Of a stretch of DNA of 64,000 bases, positions 10,814-21,595 are shown piece by piece. Location of the stretch: NCBI GenBank assembly GCA_048270185.1, contig JBLWTJ010000004.1:164615-228614 (forward strand), written 5' to 3'. Under the pieces are notes generated by a model. That model did no database searches and had not been told where the DNA came from. It saw nothing but the letters and a program-made list of their open reading frames with translations. Source of the DNA: Bacteriovoracaceae bacterium (lineage in GTDB: Bacteria; Bdellovibrionota; Bacteriovoracia; Bacteriovoracales; Bacteriovoracaceae). The first letter of the stretch is position 1. Each line of letters opens with the position of its first letter. The position numbers and the translations under genes are program-made.

Positions 10814-10879
10814 CTTCATTCCTATCAAAAATATTGTTGTAATGTTGTATAATGGAAAACACACGTTAGCAAGCTTGAG

Positions 10880-11565
10880 CTTAGTTTTTAATAGCTTTCA
10901 CAGCTTTCTTCCTATCTTCTTTTTTATATATATATTTATATATATTATTATTAAGTCTGTGGAAAAGTTCATAACTCTCGAGGCCTTGATTACTACTCTT
11001 TTGGGCCAATTTCGCAATTGTTAGCAATGGTTGATTAAAAAATATTTCGCTTTGCATACATTCGTATATTATCAATTGAGCAACAATATTTTGACGTTAT
11101 CAGATTTTTACTCACGGCCCAATGTTGATAATTTTAGGGCCATGCATAAAAGTTAAGTTTTCTTAATTTTGACTAGTCATTTACTCACATTTTCTAAACA
11201 TGTTGATAACTTTTTTATCCACGGCCTAAGTTTTTGTCGATAATATTTTCCACGGCCGTGAGTAAGTTCTAATATTCTATTTAACTTACTGTTATTATTA
11301 GATAAATTTATTAACAATATATTTTCATGGCCGTGGATTGGCCGTCTGTGGCCGTTAATAACTAACAATCTGTCGGACCATTTCTGACTAGTCAAATAGT
11401 GCTGTGAATTTGTCGGCCATTTGACTAGTCACAATATTCACTTATCAGCACATTTTTGTTGATACTGACTGGCCAAGTATCCCCAGAAATGACAAAGGCC
11501 GTGGATAAACACGGCCTTCTTATATGTGACTAGTCACTTTGAAATTTTATAATTTGAAATTTTTT
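10880..11565. promoter_or_regulatory. Predicted chromosomal replication origin oriC (dnaA-dnaN intergenic)
   Basis: AT-only tract 10921-10954 next to box TGTGGAAAA (10958-10966); further box variants at 11181, 11201, 11215, 11235, 11246, 11257 and 11500; same location as Bdellovibrio oriC. Confidence 0.9.
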
Positions 11566-13179
11566 TTAGAGTAAATTCTCAATTGTCATAATTGTACGAG
11601 ATAATAGGGGATCCTCTGGCAATTGTTTTGAGATTTTCTGTTCAGCATGGACAACTGAGCTGTGATCTCGTCCACCAAAGAACTGACCAATTTCTTCATG
11701 AGTTGCATTAGCAAGCTTACGACATAAGTACATGGCCACGAAACGCGCATTAGCGATATCCTTCGTACGTGATTTTGACTTAAGATCAGCAATAGGGATT
11801 TTAAAATGTGATGAAGTTTGCTTAGCAATTCCTTCTATTGTAATTTTCTTTTCATCTTCGAAATCTCTAAGTGAAAGAACCTCTTTAACCATCTCTAATT
11901 CGATATCAACCTTCATGATATCAGAGTAGGCTGAAAGCTTAATTAGAGCACCCTCAAGCTCTCTAATCGAGTTTTTAACGTTACAAGCGATAAGATTAAC
12001 AATGTCTTCAGATAGGAAAAGATCTAAGTCATCAGCCTTTGTATTAATGATGGCCGTACGAGTTTCAATATCTGGTTTTTGAATATCAACAACCAGACCC
12101 CACTGAAGGCGAGTCTTAATTCGCTCTTCAAGTCCGTTGATCTCTTGTGGTGTTTTATCTGATGTGAAAATTAATTGCTTACCTTTTTGGTGAAGTTCAT
12201 TAAAGATATGGAAGAATTCACGTTGTGTACCTTCTTTACCTTTAAGTTCATGAACATCATCAATCATTAGAACATCAACTTTATCAGAATATTTCGAACG
12301 GAAGTCCGCAAGTTTACCATCGTGAATGGCCTGAATCATTTCCTTCATAAAATCACGAGCTGTAATTAGACAGATGACATAGTGAGGGTATTGATTTTGA
12401 ATCCCATTTGCCATGGCATGAAGTAGGTGAGTTTTCCCTAGTCCAGAATTACTGTGAATATAAAGAGAAGGGTACTTACCTGATTTACCTGGATTCTTTG
12501 AGATAGCAACTGAGGCTGCGTGGGCCATATTATTTGAAGGACCAATAACAAAATTATCAAATGTTTTCGACTTATCGATGATGATGCGATTGTAGTCATC
12601 ATTTACGTGATCGATATACTTTGATTCAACCTTAGAAAGTAGGTCTTCTTGAACTGGCTCTAAATCTAGTGTGAAAGACATATCTGATAGGGTCTTTGGA
12701 CGAGATTGCTGAGTCGGCTCAACTTGAAGGTTTGAAGATAAGTTACTGTTATTATTAGTAATTATCTCAATTTCATAAGATTTACCCAATGTATTTACAA
12801 TACTTTGTCTAATTTGATCGATATCTTTTTCAATAAATGATTTTATGAAGTTTGTTGTTGTTGAAAAGATTGCTTTATCACCGCTAATTCTTTTAAGACG
12901 AAAGAAATCACCTTGGAAGAAAGAAGCATATTTTTGTGAATTTACTAATAATTTCAGTGTCTTATGAATTTCTTCATTCATCATATTAAGTTCATCTTGG
13001 CTAAAGAACTCATCTTCAGACACCTGATTTGAACTTGTCTGTGCTAGATTTTGCTTAATATTAAATGGATCTTCAATAATTGTGTTTTGATTATTGTTGA
13101 GATCGACTATGTTATTGATTTTATTAGGTTGTGTGCTAGAAGTTTTCAAAAATTCGTTAAAAGGAAAATTACCCTGCAT
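11566..13179 (-). CDS. dnaA: Chromosomal replication initiator DnaA
   Basis: TFDNFVIG, SGLGKTHLLHA, MIDDV, NSIRELEGAL, GGRDHSSVVHA. Confidence 0.99.
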   Translation of the reverse strand: MQGNFPFNEFLKTSSTQPNKINNIVDLNNNQNTIIEDPFNIKQNLAQTSSNQVSEDEFFSQDELNMMNEEIHKTLKLLVNSQKYASFFQGDFFRLKRISGDKAIFSTTTNFIKSFIEKDIDQIRQSIVNTLGKSYEIEIITNNNSNLSSNLQVEPTQQSRPKTLSDMSFTLDLEPVQEDLLSKVESKYIDHVNDDYNRIIIDKSKTFDNFVIGPSNNMAHAASVAISKNPGKSGKYPSLYIHSNSGLGKTHLLHAMANGIQNQYPHYVICLITARDFMKEMIQAIHDGKLADFRSKYSDKVDVLMIDDVHELKGKEGTQREFFHIFNELHQKGKQLIFTSDKTPQEINGLEERIKTRLQWGLVVDIQKPDIETRTAIINTKADDLDLFLSEDIVNLIACNVKNSIRELEGALIKLSAYSDIMKVDIELEMVKEVLSLRDFEDEKKITIEGIAKQTSSHFKIPIADLKSKSRTKDIANARFVAMYLCRKLANATHEEIGQFFGGRDHSSVVHAEQKISKQLPEDPLLSRTIMTIENLL

Positions 13180-15487: not shown

Positions 15488-17050
15488 ATGATTTACGAAA
15501 CGGATGACCTTCCTATTGTCGCTTGTTCGACTGGCCTAAATGAAAATACGGCCATAGGGGTTATCCGTTTATCTGGTTTTAATTCGATTGGTTCTATAGG
15601 ACCATTCTTCAAAAAAGATCTATCAAAACTCGAAGTACGAAAAGCAACTTTCACCAAACTCTACGACCAAGAAGGAAACTTCCTTGATGAGGTCGTTATT
15701 ACCTATTTTAAAGGTCCGCAAAGTTATAATGGTGAAAATATATTAGAGATAGCAGCACACGGTAATACACTCAATTTAAAGCGTATTATGAATGCTTTTA
15801 TAAACTCTGGTCAATTTCGTTTAGCAAAGAATGGTGAATTCACTTATCGTGCTCTAAAGAATAAGAAGCTCTCACTTGCTCAGGTCGAAGGACTTGATGC
15901 TCTTTTAAACGCTTCTTCTTCTCTAATGCTTGATGAAGGTTTGAAACTTTTAAATGGTAGTCTTTATCAAAAATATACTGATCTCTATGATAAATTCTTA
16001 AAGCTTAAGGCAGCAGTTGAAATTAATATCGATTTTGCGGAAGACGTAGGGGAAGAGCAATCACAAAAACTTCTCGATGAAGCTGTTGCTGATATTTCAG
16101 GCCATATTACTTCACTACATCGAAGTGCAAGTGTGAATGCAAAGAGTTTAATGTCACCAGATATCGTCCTTTGTGGTGAGCCTAATGCTGGTAAGAGCTC
16201 TTTGTTTAATCTATTTCTAAATGAATCGCGATCAATTGTTTCTGATATAGCTGGGACTACCAGAGATTATATTTCTGAATATATTAGCCTTGGTAATGAA
16301 ACTTTTAAACTTGTTGATACTGCAGGTCTTCGCAATACGACTGATGTTATTGAAGAAGAGGGTATTAAGAGAAGTCGTAATCTAATTGAAAATGCCTTCT
16401 ATAAAATACTTCTAGTGAATATAAATGAAGTCAAAAAATATCAATATCACGATATTAAAGAAACTCTTTTTGACGCTCTTATTTTTACACACTTTGATGA
16501 ATTTAAAGGTGATATTAATTTAGAGAATTTAAAAGCAAACCTTCCAGAGGCTATTAAATACTATAGTGCCGACACTTCAAAAGGTGAGGGAGGGCTTGTT
16601 GAAATAAGTGGTCCTATCGGACCAGATTCAGCAAGCGGTTCTATAGAACCAAGTGAAAATCATCTTGGTCCTATGGGGGCAGTTATACAAAATGGTCCTA
16701 TAGAACCAGAAAAAGAGCATGGTCCTACAGGGGCAATAACTGAATCAAATCAAGAAACTGGTCCTATAGAACCAGCTCATATAACAGAGTTAATTACTCA
16801 AGATATATTTGGTAAGTATACGAAATTACGTAATAGTGACCCGATCTCGATTGAGCGCCACCGTCTTGTTATCAATGATATTTATGGAAAATTCACAGAG
16901 TTTTCTAATAATATCAAGTATTTAAGTGATATTGCCATCATTTCATCAGAAGTATCAATTCTAGAAAAGAAAACTGCGGAACTTATTGGAATCATTAGTC
17001 CTGATGATACATTAAAGCATATCTTCACTAACTTCTGTATCGGTAAATAA
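15488..17050 (+). CDS. mnmE: tRNA modification GTPase MnmE (TrmE) with internal repeat insertion
   Basis: GEPNAGKSS, GTTRD, DTAG, terminal FCIGK; ATG at 15488 after the yidC stop. Confidence 0.96.
   Translation: MIYETDDLPIVACSTGLNENTAIGVIRLSGFNSIGSIGPFFKKDLSKLEVRKATFTKLYDQEGNFLDEVVITYFKGPQSYNGENILEIAAHGNTLNLKRIMNAFINSGQFRLAKNGEFTYRALKNKKLSLAQVEGLDALLNASSSLMLDEGLKLLNGSLYQKYTDLYDKFLKLKAAVEINIDFAEDVGEEQSQKLLDEAVADISGHITSLHRSASVNAKSLMSPDIVLCGEPNAGKSSLFNLFLNESRSIVSDIAGTTRDYISEYISLGNETFKLVDTAGLRNTTDVIEEEGIKRSRNLIENAFYKILLVNINEVKKYQYHDIKETLFDALIFTHFDEFKGDINLENLKANLPEAIKYYSADTSKGEGGLVEISGPIGPDSASGSIEPSENHLGPMGAVIQNGPIEPEKEHGPTGAITESNQETGPIEPAHITELITQDIFGKYTKLRNSDPISIERHRLVINDIYGKFTEFSNNIKYLSDIAIISSEVSILEKKTAELIGIISPDDTLKHIFTNFCIGK
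15589..15604. repeat. 16-bp palindrome TGGTTCTATAGGACCA (single copy in mnmE 5' region)
   Basis: Exact reverse complement of TGGTCCTATAGAACCA found at 16693, 16759, 21553 and 21580. Confidence 0.85.
16609..16774. repeat. Array of six TGGTYCTATAGRACCA-type palindromes inside mnmE
   Basis: Copies start at 16609, 16636, 16666, 16693, 16720 and 16759 (spacings 27, 30, 27, 27, 39). Confidence 0.95.
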
Positions 17051-17088
17051 TATATAAACCATTGATTTTTCTCTCTTTATGGCTTAAA

Positions 17089-17104
17089 TGTTCCACGTAG
17101 AACA
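17089..17104. promoter_or_regulatory. parS site TGTTCCACGTAGAACA
   Basis: Near-match to chromosomal parS consensus TGTTNCACGTGAAACA; between mnmE and mnmG. Confidence 0.85.
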
Positions 17105-17126
17105 TTATTCTCAAATAGACTTTAAA

Positions 17127-17142
17127 AGTTCCACGTGGAACA
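17127..17142. promoter_or_regulatory. parS site AGTTCCACGTGGAACA
   Basis: One mismatch from the perfect palindrome TGTTCCACGTGGAACA. Confidence 0.9.
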
Positions 17143-17154
17143 AATAGGAAACCT

Positions 17155-18996
17155 ATGTTTGATATCGCTATTATTGGTGGTGGTCATGCCGGACTTGAAG
17201 CCGCATGGGCCGCAGCTCAATTTGATTTGAAGGTCGCCATTGTTACAATGCCAGGAGTAAGTATTGCTTCAGCTCCATGTAACCCAGCAGTTGGTGGAGT
17301 TGGTAAGGGTCAGGTTGTAAGAGAGATTGATGCTCTTGGTGGTATCATGGGTAAGTTAGCTGATCAGAGTGCGATTCAATATCGAACATTAAATGAATCC
17401 AAAGGCTATGCTGTACAATCAACTCGAGTACAAATTGATAAGGAAGTCTATTCACGAAATGCTGAGGCTGCAGTAGCTGCCAATGCAAATATTGAAGTTA
17501 TCCGAGAGATGGTTGCAAAGGTCAGTAAGGATCAGGATGATTTTGTTATTAAGACAGATAAGGGCGAATATCTTGCTAAGAAAATTGTTGTTACGACAGG
17601 TACTTTCCTAGCGGGTAAGATGCACATAGGTGAGGAGCAATCTGAAGGTGGACGTGTTGATTGTTTGAAATCAGACTCACTTGAAGATATCTTTGTGGGT
17701 GTTACGGCACTTAAGACAAAGTTTAAAACAGGTACTCCAGCAAGACTTAAGCGTGATTCAATTGATTTTTCAAAGATGGTTGAACAAGAAAGTGATGCAA
17801 CAGCTATTAATTTCCACTATGGACATAAATTAACAGAAAGATTCATTGATCAAGTCTCTTGTCATTTAACAAAGACTAATGAGAAGACTTTAGGAATTAT
17901 AAGAGATAATAAAGAGAGAAGCCCGATCTTTAATGGACAGATTCAAGGGGTTGGTCCGAGATACTGTCCATCAATCGAAGATAAGGCCTATCGTTATGAA
18001 GATAAAGATGTACACCATGTCTTTGTTGAACCAGAATCTCTTGAATTAGATACTTTCTATCCAAATGGTATTTCAACATCACTTCCACGTGAAGTTCAGC
18101 TAGACTTTATCCGTACAATTGAAGGGCTTGAGAATGCTGAGATTGCTATCTATGGATATGCTGTTGAATACGATGTTGTTAATACAACTTGCCTCGATAG
18201 AACACTTCAGTCTAAAGAAATGCCAGGTCTATACTTTGCAGGGCAGGTAAATGGTACTTCAGGTTATGAAGAAGCTGCGGGACAAGGACTAATTGCAGGT
18301 ATTAATGCTGCCAGATCATTAATCGGTGCTGATACATTTATTCTTGATAGAGAAGATTCATATATAGGAGTTATGGTAGAAGACCTTGTTTCAAATCTTA
18401 GAGATGAGCCTTATCGTCTATTTACAGCTCGTAATGAGAATCGATTATACGTTAGAGAAGATAATACAATTCTACGCATGAAGAAATACCGCTCACAACT
18501 AGGACTTTATGCAGATATTGATCGCTATCAAGAGATGTTTGAACAGAGCTTTAATGTTATTTGGAGTATTGCTAAGAATTTCACGTATAAGGCAAATCCT
18601 GTTAATAAGAAATACTTTGAAGTGAGGGGTTATGGACCACTTAATACAAATATTACATTGGCCGAATTATCGAAGAGAGCTCACTTAAATCCAGTTGAAG
18701 TCTTGATGAGCGAATTAGCTACGAATATGATGGCCTTTGATGAGAATGTGATTCGAACAGTAGCTATCTCGCTTAAGTATGAAGGTTATATTGATCGTGC
18801 TCTTGTTGAGAACGCAAAGATTAATCGCCTTGCTAAGAAACCTATTGATTGGAAAGTACTAGTAGCTAGTGAGAATATCTCATTTGAGTGCCGCCAAAGA
18901 ATTACAGAGATTAAACCTGAAAGCTTTGGGCAATTACAGAGAATAGTAGGGATTCGCCCCGCAACCTTGGCCTTCGTTGCCGGAAATATTTTATGA
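17155..18996 (+). CDS. mnmG: tRNA uridine 5-carboxymethylaminomethyl modification enzyme MnmG (GidA)
   Basis: IIGGGHAGLEAA, CNPAVGG, GPRYCPSIEDK, GQVNGTSGYEEAAGQG. Confidence 0.98.
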   Translation: MFDIAIIGGGHAGLEAAWAAAQFDLKVAIVTMPGVSIASAPCNPAVGGVGKGQVVREIDALGGIMGKLADQSAIQYRTLNESKGYAVQSTRVQIDKEVYSRNAEAAVAANANIEVIREMVAKVSKDQDDFVIKTDKGEYLAKKIVVTTGTFLAGKMHIGEEQSEGGRVDCLKSDSLEDIFVGVTALKTKFKTGTPARLKRDSIDFSKMVEQESDATAINFHYGHKLTERFIDQVSCHLTKTNEKTLGIIRDNKERSPIFNGQIQGVGPRYCPSIEDKAYRYEDKDVHHVFVEPESLELDTFYPNGISTSLPREVQLDFIRTIEGLENAEIAIYGYAVEYDVVNTTCLDRTLQSKEMPGLYFAGQVNGTSGYEEAAGQGLIAGINAARSLIGADTFILDREDSYIGVMVEDLVSNLRDEPYRLFTARNENRLYVREDNTILRMKKYRSQLGLYADIDRYQEMFEQSFNVIWSIAKNFTYKANPVNKKYFEVRGYGPLNTNITLAELSKRAHLNPVEVLMSELATNMMAFDENVIRTVAISLKYEGYIDRALVENAKINRLAKKPIDWKVLVASENISFECRQRITEIKPESFGQLQRIVGIRPATLAFVAGNIL

Positions 18997-19658
18997 TGAA
19001 AGATACAGAGTTTTGTGAGAAATATCTCGAACAGATAAACGGTCCATTTGCTGGAATTAATTTAACACGTATTAATACACCAGAAGAATTTCATGCGAAA
19101 CAATATGTCGACAGTATAAGTCCTATCACTGATGTTCCAAGTCTTAAAAAGATTTATGAAAATACAAAGATCCATGTTGATATTGGTTTTGGGGGAGGCT
19201 TCCCGTTACTACCTCTTGCAAGTCTAAATCCTGATAAAAGATATATCGGATTTGAAGCACGTGGAAAAAAATCTAAGGTCGTAAACCAAATTGCTGAGGC
19301 CATTGGTCTTACAAATGTTAAGACATATCATCAGCGTTTTGAGAATGTTTACTTTGATCGAGATTGTACGATTACCTTTAAGGCAGTAAGCACAATCAAG
19401 AATCTTATACCTCTAATAATTACTGATAAAAAAATTAATATTATCTTCTATAAGGGGCCAAACTTCTATGAACTAGAAGACCTGGATTGGCTTGGAAAAG
19501 AATGGGAGATCGTCGAAGAGACTCATGTTGATATACCAGGAACTGAGGGACGTATTATGATTGCCCTTAAGAATAAAAATGTTCTACGTGGAACAGAGAT
19601 AGCAAGTTTTAGAAAAAATAAAAATAAAAATCTTGTCACATTGTCCTCATTTCTTTAA
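18993..19658 (+). CDS. rsmG: 16S rRNA m7G527 methyltransferase RsmG (GidB)
   Basis: INLTRI, VDIGFGGGFP SAM motif; between mnmG and parA. Confidence 0.9.
   Translation: MMKDTEFCEKYLEQINGPFAGINLTRINTPEEFHAKQYVDSISPITDVPSLKKIYENTKIHVDIGFGGGFPLLPLASLNPDKRYIGFEARGKKSKVVNQIAEAIGLTNVKTYHQRFENVYFDRDCTITFKAVSTIKNLIPLIITDKKINIIFYKGPNFYELEDLDWLGKEWEIVEETHVDIPGTEGRIMIALKNKNVLRGTEIASFRKNKNKNLVTLSSFL
19580..19595. promoter_or_regulatory. parS site TGTTCTACGTGGAACA within the rsmG 3' end
   Basis: Reverse complement of the 17089 site; 100 bp upstream of parA. Confidence 0.85.
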
Positions 19659-19694
19659 AAATATAGTTAGAAACTATTTTATGGGGAGACATAA

Positions 19695-20543
19695 ATGGCT
19701 AAAATCATTGCGCTTATGAATCAAAAGGGTGGAGTTGGTAAGACAACAACCACTATCAATCTTGCAGCTTGCCTAGCAGTAGCTGAGAAAAAGACTCTGG
19801 TAATTGATCTTGACCCTCAAGGGAATGGTAGCGTTAGCTTAGGTCTTGATTCGTCGCAGCATAGCAATAGTAATATCTATCATGCACTAATTGGAAGAAC
19901 AGATATTCGTGAAGCAATTTATGAAACAGAACTTCCAAATCTACATATTTGTCCTGCTGATAATAATCTATCAGGAGCAGAGATTGAGCTTGTAAGTGAG
20001 TTCGCTAGAGAGTCTAAGTTAAAGACTGCTTTTATGCCGATTATGGATGCTTATGACTACATTCTAATCGATTGCCCACCATCACTAGGCCTACTGACTG
20101 TAAACGCTCTAAATGCGGCTGACAGCTTCATAGTACCAATGCAGACAGAATATCTTGCAATGGAAGGTCTAGCTCAACTAGTAAACACAGTTAAATTAAT
20201 TAAAGCAAATTTAAATCCTACATTGGAAATGGGCGGAATCGTTCTTACGATGTTTGATGGAAGAGCTTCTCTTCACAAGCAAGTTGCTGAAGAGATTAGA
20301 AGGCACTTTGGCGATAAAGTATTTCAATCGGTAATACCTAGAAATGTAAAACTCGCCGAGTGCCCATCTTTTGGGAAACCTGTAATCCTTTACGATATTG
20401 AATCAAAGGGCTCAGAAGCATACCTAGCGCTAGCAAAAGAACTTATTATAAGAGATCGCGCTGTGGAAATTGAAAAAAATGAAATCCCTGAAGTACCTTC
20501 GGTAAATGAAATCGATAATACACTTCAAGGTAACATTCAGTAG
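19695..20543 (+). CDS. parA: Chromosome partitioning ATPase ParA/Soj
   Basis: NQKGGVGKTTT, DLDPQGN, IDCPPSLG, IPRNVKLAECPSFG. Confidence 0.97.
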   Translation: MAKIIALMNQKGGVGKTTTTINLAACLAVAEKKTLVIDLDPQGNGSVSLGLDSSQHSNSNIYHALIGRTDIREAIYETELPNLHICPADNNLSGAEIELVSEFARESKLKTAFMPIMDAYDYILIDCPPSLGLLTVNALNAADSFIVPMQTEYLAMEGLAQLVNTVKLIKANLNPTLEMGGIVLTMFDGRASLHKQVAEEIRRHFGDKVFQSVIPRNVKLAECPSFGKPVILYDIESKGSEAYLALAKELIIRDRAVEIEKNEIPEVPSVNEIDNTLQGNIQ

Positions 20544-20559
20544 GTAAGGGGAAAGAGAG

Positions 20560-21522
20560 ATGGCTAAAAAAATGGCACTAGGAAAAGGAATGGGTTCACT
20601 ATTAGGTGGTACTCCAAATTCATCAAAAGCTGCAAAAGCACAGGCTGCTTTTTCTGATCTACAAAAAGTAGCGGCCGAAAACCAGTCGGCGCAACCAGTT
20701 GCAAAACCACAGCAGACAGTACAGGTAGAAACTAACCCATCAATGCTTGATGTAAGTGTAATCTTTGCAAACCCAAATCAACCAAGAAAAATCTTTAAAG
20801 AAGAAGAGCTACATGAGCTTTCTAACTCAATTAAAGAAAACGGTGTTATTCAACCTCTAATCGTTGTTAAGGCCGATAATGGATATGAACTTGTAGCAGG
20901 AGAGAGAAGACTTCGTGCTTCTAAACTTGCAGGACTTACACAAGTTCCAGTTGTTATTAAAAGAGCAACAGATCGTGAAAAGATGGTTATGTCGATCATC
21001 GAAAACGTTCAAAGATCTGATCTAAACTGCGTTGAAGAAGCTCTTGCTTACTTCGCACTAATGGAAGATTTCAACTTAACTCAAGAAGAAGTTGCTAAAA
21101 AAGTTGGTAAAGAAAGATCAACGATTGCAAACTTTCTTAGAATTCTAAAGCTTCCAAGAGATGTTGTAGAGCTTATTCAGAAGGATCAACTTTCTTTTGG
21201 TCACGCAAAAATTCTTGCAGGTGTAAAAGAGAGAGAAGATTGTATTCGCATTGCAAATAAAGCGGCAGTAGATAATTTATCAGTTAGAGAAACTGAGAAA
21301 TTAATTAAAGCTTCAAAACGTGCACCAAAAGTCGTTAAAGAAGAAGAGAACTTTGATTTCTTTAATGGGAAAATGGCGCAATATAGAGAAAAACTAGAAC
21401 AACGTACTGGATATCATTTTGGAATTAAAACTAATAAGAATGGTGGCGGAGAAGTTGTTTTAAAATTTTCTAATGAAGCCGAATTTAATGATATTTACGA
21501 GTATCTATTAACGAACAGATAA
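20560..21522 (+). CDS. parB: Chromosome partitioning protein ParB/Spo0J
   Basis: LGKGMGSLL N-terminal peptide, NPNQPRK, AGERRLRA, ENVQRSDL, HTH RSTIANFLR. Confidence 0.97.
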   Translation: MAKKMALGKGMGSLLGGTPNSSKAAKAQAAFSDLQKVAAENQSAQPVAKPQQTVQVETNPSMLDVSVIFANPNQPRKIFKEEELHELSNSIKENGVIQPLIVVKADNGYELVAGERRLRASKLAGLTQVPVVIKRATDREKMVMSIIENVQRSDLNCVEEALAYFALMEDFNLTQEEVAKKVGKERSTIANFLRILKLPRDVVELIQKDQLSFGHAKILAGVKEREDCIRIANKAAVDNLSVRETEKLIKASKRAPKVVKEEENFDFFNGKMAQYREKLEQRTGYHFGIKTNKNGGGEVVLKFSNEAEFNDIYEYLLTNR

Positions 21523-21525
21523 TTC

Positions 21526-21595
21526 TGGTCCTATGGGACCAGTTTTAACTACTGGTCCTATAGAACCAAACTAAATAAATGGTCCTATAGAACCA
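21526..21595. repeat. Three TGGTCCTATRGRACCA palindromes, 27-bp period, between parB and bactofilin
   Basis: Copies at 21526, 21553 and 21580; same motif as the mnmE array. Confidence 0.95.

Follow-up and report, generated by a model that had tools for sequence, protein, structure and literature searches.

An array of parS-like sites within mnmE near the inferred origin of a Bacteriovoracaceae chromosome, and a second ParB as its candidate reader

Plasmid and secondary-replicon ParAB systems, and likewise KorB, have an operon of their own, a private site, and operator-like half-sites at the promoter. Among chromosomal ParABS systems, M. xanthus is described as having 24 clustered parS sites (PMC3778016) and Bdellovibrio bacteriovorus as having two canonical ones (PMC10547168). 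Bdellovibrio is also described as having orphan ParAs with no ParB neighbour (PMC7186360), and a chromatin study of Bacteriovorax, in the part that touches on segregation, mentions only a generic parABS organisation (PMC11789641). In the Firmicutes, Noc is described as a ParB paralogue on the same chromosome that acquired a new 16-bp palindrome, NBS, through changes at positions 173, 179, 184, and 201, and R173 and G201 are described as conserved in the proteins that read parS (PMC7383237).

Here we analyse a stretch of 64,000 nucleotides from a Bacteriovoracaceae bacterium (the window), which carries an array of sites that appears to work like a ParABS site array, yet is neither canonical parS nor Noc-NBS. 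As in chromosomal ParABS, there is a 16-bp motif of two half-sites near the origin, identical to parS at 10 of 16 bases, and a ParB-fold protein with CTPase motifs (ParB2) is encoded beside a Walker-A ParA (ParA2). In contrast to chromosomal ParABS, the core of the site is CTATAG rather than CACGTG, the candidate reader lacks R173 and G201, the parA2-parB2 operon lies far from the sites (on another contig here) and coexists with an intact canonical ParABS, and most of the sites are here written in frame into an enzyme. With Noc-NBS the system shares a ParB paralogue on the same chromosome with changed residues at 173, 179, 184, and 201, although the pairing of ParB2 with the site is predicted; it differs in its code (K/S/K-R/Y, not QKKR), in the sequence and origin-concentrated placement of the site, and in having a dedicated ParA. 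With the plasmid systems and KorB it shares a parA-parB operon of its own, a putative private site, and operator-like half-sites at the promoter, but here the operon belongs to the chromosomal core of a whole family and the centromere-like sites are not beside it. A search of the literature (main texts of openly accessible papers) returned no description of the motif, of the MnmE insertion, or of ParB2.

The gene order in the window is dnaA-rnpA-yidC-mnmE-mnmG-rsmG-parA-parB-bactofilin-atp. The motif takes the form TG(G)TYCTA-TAGRACCA in mnmE (16 bp, two half-sites), and six copies, all in frame 0, follow one another at spacings of 27, 30, 27, 27, and 39 bp. The gene and the sites are as follows (sites are given without a strand):

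15488..17050, + strand: mnmE, 520 aa, host gene of the array (Pfam TrmE_N, MMR_HSR1, MnmE_helical)
15589..15604: site TGGTTCTATAGGACCA in the 5' part of mnmE, in frame, peptide GSIGP
16609..16624: array copy 1, TGGTCCTATCGGACCA, peptide GPIGP
16636..16651: array copy 2, CGGTTCTATAGAACCA, peptide GSIEP
16666..16681: array copy 3, TGGTCCTATGGGGGCA, peptide GPMGA, variant half-site
16693..16708: array copy 4, TGGTCCTATAGAACCA, peptide GPIEP
16720..16735: array copy 5, TGGTCCTACAGGGGCA, peptide GPTGA, variant half-site
16759..16774: array copy 6, TGGTCCTATAGAACCA, peptide GPIEP
21526..21595: second array, non-coding, between the parB stop and the bactofilin start, three copies at 21526, 21553, and 21580 (spacing 27, 27)

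Site mapping thus agrees with a preliminary description of this DNA on the six in-frame copies and their spacings, and counting from the ATG at 15488 gives the 520 aa that it had estimated. That description had missed the four other copies (15589, 21526, 21553, and 21580). It had also read each peptide as the translation of one palindrome: the in-frame translation holds, but none of the six mnmE copies is a perfect 16-bp palindrome, and the GPMGA and GPTGA copies, which carry the recurring variant half-site TGCCCC-, pair at only 5 of 8 positions.

The array is neither a chance occurrence nor an assembly artefact. In the 3.35-Mb genome, GGTYCTATAGRACC has 6 exact and 10 one-mismatch matches, all of them confined to contig C4, with 8 of the 10 inside the window. 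Single contigs from each of the three public DNA runs compared (one of which may be the source) span the array without a gap, and they differ within it only at 16682 and 16686, which are spacer positions. When the whole genome is scored with a position weight matrix built from relatives, the ten best sites are the ten copies listed above. All lie at 15589-21595, a span of 6 kb about 2-8 kb from dnaA, so they cluster at the origin as the sites of a ParABS-type system do. We take the sites to be origin-proximal because the cumulative GC-skew minimum of the contig (window position 12356) falls inside dnaA. Three further matches on contig C4 (scores 15-16) were not counted because a reversed-genome control yields 5 matches that are as good.

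The inferred origin region and the canonical system in the window are:

10865..13179, - strand: dnaA and the dnaA-dnaN gap, inferred origin region
17089..17142: two canonical parS sites (17089 and 17127), between mnmE and mnmG
19580..19595: third canonical parS site, in the 3' part of rsmG
19695..21522, + strand: canonical parA1-parB1 operon; ParB1 keeps the equivalents of R173 and G201

The three parS sites were located with what we take to be the standard parS pattern, and they are interleaved with the ten sites of the new motif. The pattern used agrees with the M. xanthus parS consensus oligo as given in PMC3778016. We rejected the idea that the new motif is itself canonical parS: TGGTYCTATAGRACCA differs from the consensus TGTTYCACGTGRAACA at 6 of 16 positions, and true parS sites exist separately.

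Could canonical ParB1, with relaxed specificity, bind both parS and the new motif? The new sites flank parB and are intermingled with parS, and family ParB1 proteins usually have F or Y at 179 and K or N at 184, with lysine at either position described as permissive (PMC7383237). Against this, ParB1 retains R173 and G201, and the motif departs from parS at six of its 16 bases, including the CACGTG core. Also, position 179 does not track the presence of the motif: a ParB1 with T179 coexists with large arrays (loci L083/L112), and G025, a sister-family genome that lacks the motif, has F179. We therefore regard a promiscuous ParB1 as very unlikely. (The contig of L083/L112, CALIJZ010000002.1, has a rearranged origin with dnaA between mnmE and rnpA-yidC, and it carries 13 motif copies, of which 9 keep strictly to a period of 24 bp.)

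The codons of the array peptides indicate that the DNA is under selection. Among 27 MnmE ORFs that were chosen by protein homology only, 19 carry the peptides, for a total of 83 occurrences of G[PS][IMT][GE][PA]. The first Gly codon is GGT in 83 of 83 (background 0.34), the Ser codon is TCT in 19 of 19, the Ile codon is ATA in 52 of 58 (background 0.24), and the Glu codon is GAA in 29 of 30; the base before the first codon is T in 80 of 83. Although copies within one array are not independent, genera share only 40-49% identity in MnmE; with one ORF per genus, GGT is found in 38 of 38. (A larger count, with 414 peptides from 89 ORFs, is partly circular because most of those loci were chosen by the DNA motif.) As a control, the genuine GPIGP repeats of a collagen-like protein are encoded by a mixture of codons (GGT 109/222, ATA 77/222). 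Between the window and a 93%-identical orthologue (locus L002), 0 of 96 site bases differ, as compared to 30 of 70 spacer bases. The preliminary description had predicted fixed synonymous positions with free spacers, as seen here, and a variable number of copies among relatives, which range from 0 to 11 per ORF. It had named synonymous changes that break the motif while keeping the peptide as the contrary outcome, and none were seen.

The decisive arrangement for selection at the DNA level is at locus L096, where MnmE is free of the insert and five non-coding copies stand behind its stop codon, spaced by 27, 29, 27, and 29. Overall, we found 595 sites in 96 partly overlapping loci. Among the 87 sites that are not in mnmE, 34 fall between parB and bactofilin, 16 follow bactofilin, and 4 lie in mnmG, in another frame. 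Off-frame copies that read LVLWGH are present in loci L016 and L019. Also, the array peptide shifts with the degeneracy of the DNA (GPIEP, GSIGP, GPMGA). Inside mnmE (149 pairs) as well as outside it (13 of 25 pairs), the most common spacing is 27 bp, and few spacings are below 24, consistent with the footprint of a protein. As judged from these comparisons, the array is shown to be selected as DNA and not as peptide.

The repeats could instead be hairpins in RNA or DNA (mRNA structure, a cruciform, or REP-like elements), or a GPxxP linker that matters as protein. The region does fold strongly as RNA (z = −5.9), as would be expected of any array of palindromes. The most common form of the site has a C:A mismatch (229 of 402 perfect-consensus mnmE sites, with about 202 expected under independence), and the two halves vary independently, so what is kept is a pair of protein-type half-sites rather than base pairing. 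REP/BIME-type repeats were also rejected because the sites are confined to the origin, instead of being dispersed through the genome, and because the mismatched form dominates. The fixed codons and the off-frame and non-coding copies exclude a function of the peptide. Overall, we view the hairpin and linker explanations as largely refuted and highly improbable. For the dual-coding claim of the preliminary description, this means that selection on the DNA is supported, even to the point that the array can leave the gene, but that the half-sites are conserved rather than the pairing of a palindrome.

Within the protein, the site-bearing stretch is G375-P429. An in-frame insertion of about 60 aa had been claimed; the extra stretch is real and in frame, and it measures 55 aa. 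From the DTAG motif to the end, MnmE has 244 aa here; in the 8 ORFs (of 85) that have no copy, this length is 165-190 aa. It rises by 8.8 aa per copy (r = 0.88). The NCBIfam models for MnmE match the product below their cut-offs, and MnmE structures in the PDB were matched. We aligned the insert-free L096 protein to a solved MnmE (1xzp), which places the insert at the G5 position. It had previously been placed after the G domain; according to this alignment, it falls in the final part of the domain, at G5 or directly behind it and ahead of the last helix. G1-G3, the catalytic glutamate E289, and FCIGK are intact; the array either takes the place of G5 or comes after it. Relatives with few copies read SGSIEP or AGSIGA at the position of TSALDP or TSSITG in outgroups, so the seed copy probably supplanted G5. 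G4 is [TS]HxD instead of NKxD in 69 of 84 MnmE ORFs; because the same form is found in the array-free G025, relaxation of the loop appears to have preceded the growth of the array. (In the window, [TS]HxD is at 16490-16510, and it also occurs in locus L021; guanine recognition may be altered.) A single-sequence structure model of MnmE had a mean pLDDT of 34.6, too low to be informative about the loop.

The motif is characteristic of the family. Its exact 14-bp core is present in 44 of 46 Bacteriovoracaceae genomes, versus 4 of 154 genomes from other families of the phylum (once in each), and no motif was found in G025, the single sister-family genome. G238, which is a family genome without the exact core, and the low-count genomes G047 and G022 have variant arrays with the TGCCCC half-site; G226 (96% complete, 80 contigs) has only scattered weak matches. 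When one genome per prokaryotic species was searched for pairs of exact copies next to each other, 96 stretches were returned, and nearly all of the 80 matches listed are labelled as Bacteriovoracaceae, Bacteriovorax, Halobacteriovorax, or more broadly as Bdellovibrionota or deltaproteobacteria. One record labelled Flavobacteriaceae (locus L109) has the Bacteriovoracaceae gene order and the array, and it may be mis-binned or mislabelled.

Because the motif matches parS at 10 of 16 positions, with the same Y/R degeneracy, we sought its reader among ParB paralogues. The genome encodes three proteins with a ParB_N domain. Besides ParB1, there is ParB3 (G000:C1:69160-70143; also L033:775-1761), which has an N-domain of the CTPase type and no neighbouring parA in its locus, and which we rejected as the reader as it is found in only 30 of 46 family genomes (and in none outside the family). 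The remaining candidate, ParB2, is encoded outside of the window:

G000:C1:1559007-1560765, - strand: parA2-parB2 operon, candidate reader
G000:C1:1559007-1559906, - strand: parB2, following parA2

As in a ParABS-type system, parB2 is next to its own Walker-A parA2 (KGGxGKT), in 30 of the 30 loci examined. ParA2 aligns over its length to ParA1 with 32% identity. ParB2 scores over the cut-offs for ParB_N and TIGR00180 and weakly for HTH_ParB (E = 0.002). It has the CTPase motifs QVR, GERR, and ENxxRE and an invariant Q55, so it is predicted to combine a CTPase with a helix-turn-helix. Its fold matches are to ParB, Noc, and KorB (including 8qa9, a KorB structure), and its top matches by both sequence and fold are Noc and KorB. 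The recognition helix is nearly invariant (SKSEVHR; the helices listed fit SK[ST]E[VI]HR). At the positions of R173, T179, A184, and G201 in parS readers, ParB2 has K, S, K or R, and Y; thus, it lacks both residues that mark a canonical parS reader, while ParB1 has both. A structure prediction for the ParB2 homodimer scored 0.04, too low to weigh for or against it.

All 46 family genomes encode ParB2, and none of the 154 others does (E ≤ 1e-25). In a wider sample, 146 of 149 family genomes have a strong match, and the three that do not are 81-85% complete. Its DNA-binding domain is single-copy in 61 of 61, and ParB2 is absent from G025, the one sister-family genome. A protein search found 18 proteins under 1e-30, with the next at 3.7e-26, and the best plasmid proteins among the matches listed are 26-36% identical. 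Searches of proteins, viruses, and metagenomes found no close outgroup of ParB2 with adjacent sites, and a scan of viral sequences found no helix of the ParB2 type. All 80 of the metagenome loci that we kept have a helix of this type; 77 also have the GERR motif, and 3 are incomplete. Nevertheless, co-occurrence with the motif is weak evidence for binding because any gene in the core of the family shares that distribution.

As co-occurrence alone is weak, we examined the promoter of parA2-parB2. The 200 bp upstream of parA2 contain 40 exact half-sites in 35 of 104 distinct regions, as compared to 1.06 in dinucleotide shuffles and 6 of 279 for other upstream regions of the same loci. Further controls gave 0 of 47 for dnaN, 1 of 58 for dnaA, and 0 of 23 for parB3. 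(The upstream regions of yidC, parA1, and atpF' are also enriched for one or both patterns, but these are inside the origin cluster.) Two clades supply most of the raw count. After correction for kinship, an exact half-site is found in 7 of 46 ParB2 lineages, whereas permuted motifs average 0.8 and only 1 of 300 reaches 7; the other 39 lineages, including this genome, have no exact half-site at the promoter.

The placement of the half-sites differs by clade: they form a split inverted pair (with a spacer of 9-11 bp), or lie over the −10 box, or lie near the presumed start site. One clade has 15 regions in which split inverted half-sites, among them the array variant TGCCCCTA, are just upstream of the −35 box. 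All 40 exact half-sites are of the GGACC form and none is TAGAACCA, while both forms are common in the arrays. Of the GGACC words upstream of parA2, 40 of 78 are TAGGACCA, versus 2% genome-wide. A methylation word (GGWCC or GGCC) was rejected as the cause because the flanks are specific and GGACC is under-represented (0.77). Full palindromes were not found beside parA2-parB2, unlike at plasmid centromeres, and split-site operators elsewhere in this genome were not above the control. Genome-wide, GGCC occurs at about twice the Markov expectation (1.97).

The promoter half-sites tie the motif to the operon without naming the protein that binds. Thus, the array might be read by some other DNA-binding protein specific to the family, for example one that anchors the origin or regulates the cell cycle, and this protein might also control the parA2-parB2 promoter. 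This seems improbable: the motif resembles parS even in its degenerate positions (Y/R at 5 and 12), no product of the operon other than ParB2 has a predicted helix-turn-helix, and ParB3 is both patchily distributed in the family and without half-sites upstream. Instead, we think it quite likely that ParB2 reads the motif, which gives the centromeric option of the preliminary description a candidate reader.

What would ParB2 do at the array? We tend to favor the view that the array is a loading site ("parS2") for CTP-dependent ParB2 clamps that, with ParA2, form a second centromere-like system. In this scheme, each helix-turn-helix of a ParB2 dimer would read one half-site, and ParB2 would close into CTP-dependent clamps at the array and from there spread across the region of the origin. 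Alongside canonical ParAB1-parS, ParA2 would be responsible for moving or positioning this second partition complex, and ParB2 would repress its own operon via the half-sites at the promoter. The first copy would have taken the place of the G5 motif, followed by expansion within mnmE. The array could grow there because one frame of the motif gives benign peptides rich in G, P, and S and because the G5 loop is tolerant; the other two frames give W-[S/F]-Y-R-T or a stop.

A second role in segregation is not required, as each of the 65 complete origin loci has the canonical ParAB1-parS system. ParB2 might bind the array but act as a clamp like Noc, KorB, or VirB, with a role in division-site control, silencing, or cell-cycle titration. 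The ubiquity of canonical ParABS, the top matches of ParB2 to Noc and KorB, and the half-sites at the promoter, which point to regulation, would all suit such a role. However, Noc sites are spread along the chromosome, whereas these sites are confined to 6 kb at the origin. The constant presence of a Walker-A ParA that resembles ParA1 also argues for partition, and the Noc model (TIGR04285) gives ParB2 87 bits against a cut-off of 315. (Identity with Noc-NBS was rejected: ParB2 falls below that cut-off and lacks the QKKR residues, and the site sequence is different.) Hence, a Noc-like role seems unlikely.

Returning to parS2 as a second centromere, a broader claim, which we advance with some hesitation, is that a single chromosome of the Bacteriovoracaceae is served by two complete and mutually orthogonal ParABS systems, whose centromeres are interleaved. 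If so, the second system would have a new recognition code, an operon far from its sites, and a centromere that arose as repeats expanded within the loop by which MnmE, a tRNA-modifying GTPase, binds guanine, and the length of MnmE would directly record the centromere's copy number. It would also be useful for locus labelling, as an orthogonal pair of ParB and site. The locus is a clear natural example of an insertion that a protein carries for the sake of its DNA. Some relatives have the array outside the gene and others have it in a different frame, and these serve as internal controls. ParB2 and its motif would be a third, predicted protein-site pair in the ParB/Noc family, and with a named site and a named helix, the evolution of specificity becomes directly testable. 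Finally, Bdellovibrio, a relative of this predator lineage, is described as segregating several copies of its chromosome before it divides in a non-binary manner (PMC10547168). In the present lineage, a second origin-bound clamp with its own ParA is a candidate for the spacing or anchoring of origins.

We also noted several features of related sequences. Upstream of parA2 in this genome (locus L131; G000:C1, about 1560775-1560800), a degenerate inverted repeat, GGTCA-N6-TGACC, precedes the ribosome-binding site; two congeners have TGGTC...TAGGACCA at this position, and the repeat could be an operator remnant or an RNA stem. Directly 3' of parB2 is an ORF of 271 aa with no NCBIfam match (L032:49-864), and most loci have an ORF of similar size. 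A scan of viral contigs for the motif returned 82 stretches; we treat these as chance or convergence because those that we fetched had no match to MnmE or ParB2. Among the viral stretches, L210, L256, and L264 are from one 191-kb record (IMGVR_UViG_638275427_000001), which has many spaced copies of the 16-mer within longer AT-rich repeats, probably by convergence. Last, metagenome contigs of 0.9-18 kb encode eight stand-alone DNA-binding domains of the ParB2 type (P0021, P0046, P0076, P0115, P0126, P0127, P0128, and P0133; 119-158 aa, SKSEIHR...EKYVL) that lack the CTPase domain, and these could be mimics or competitors of ParB2 from mobile elements.
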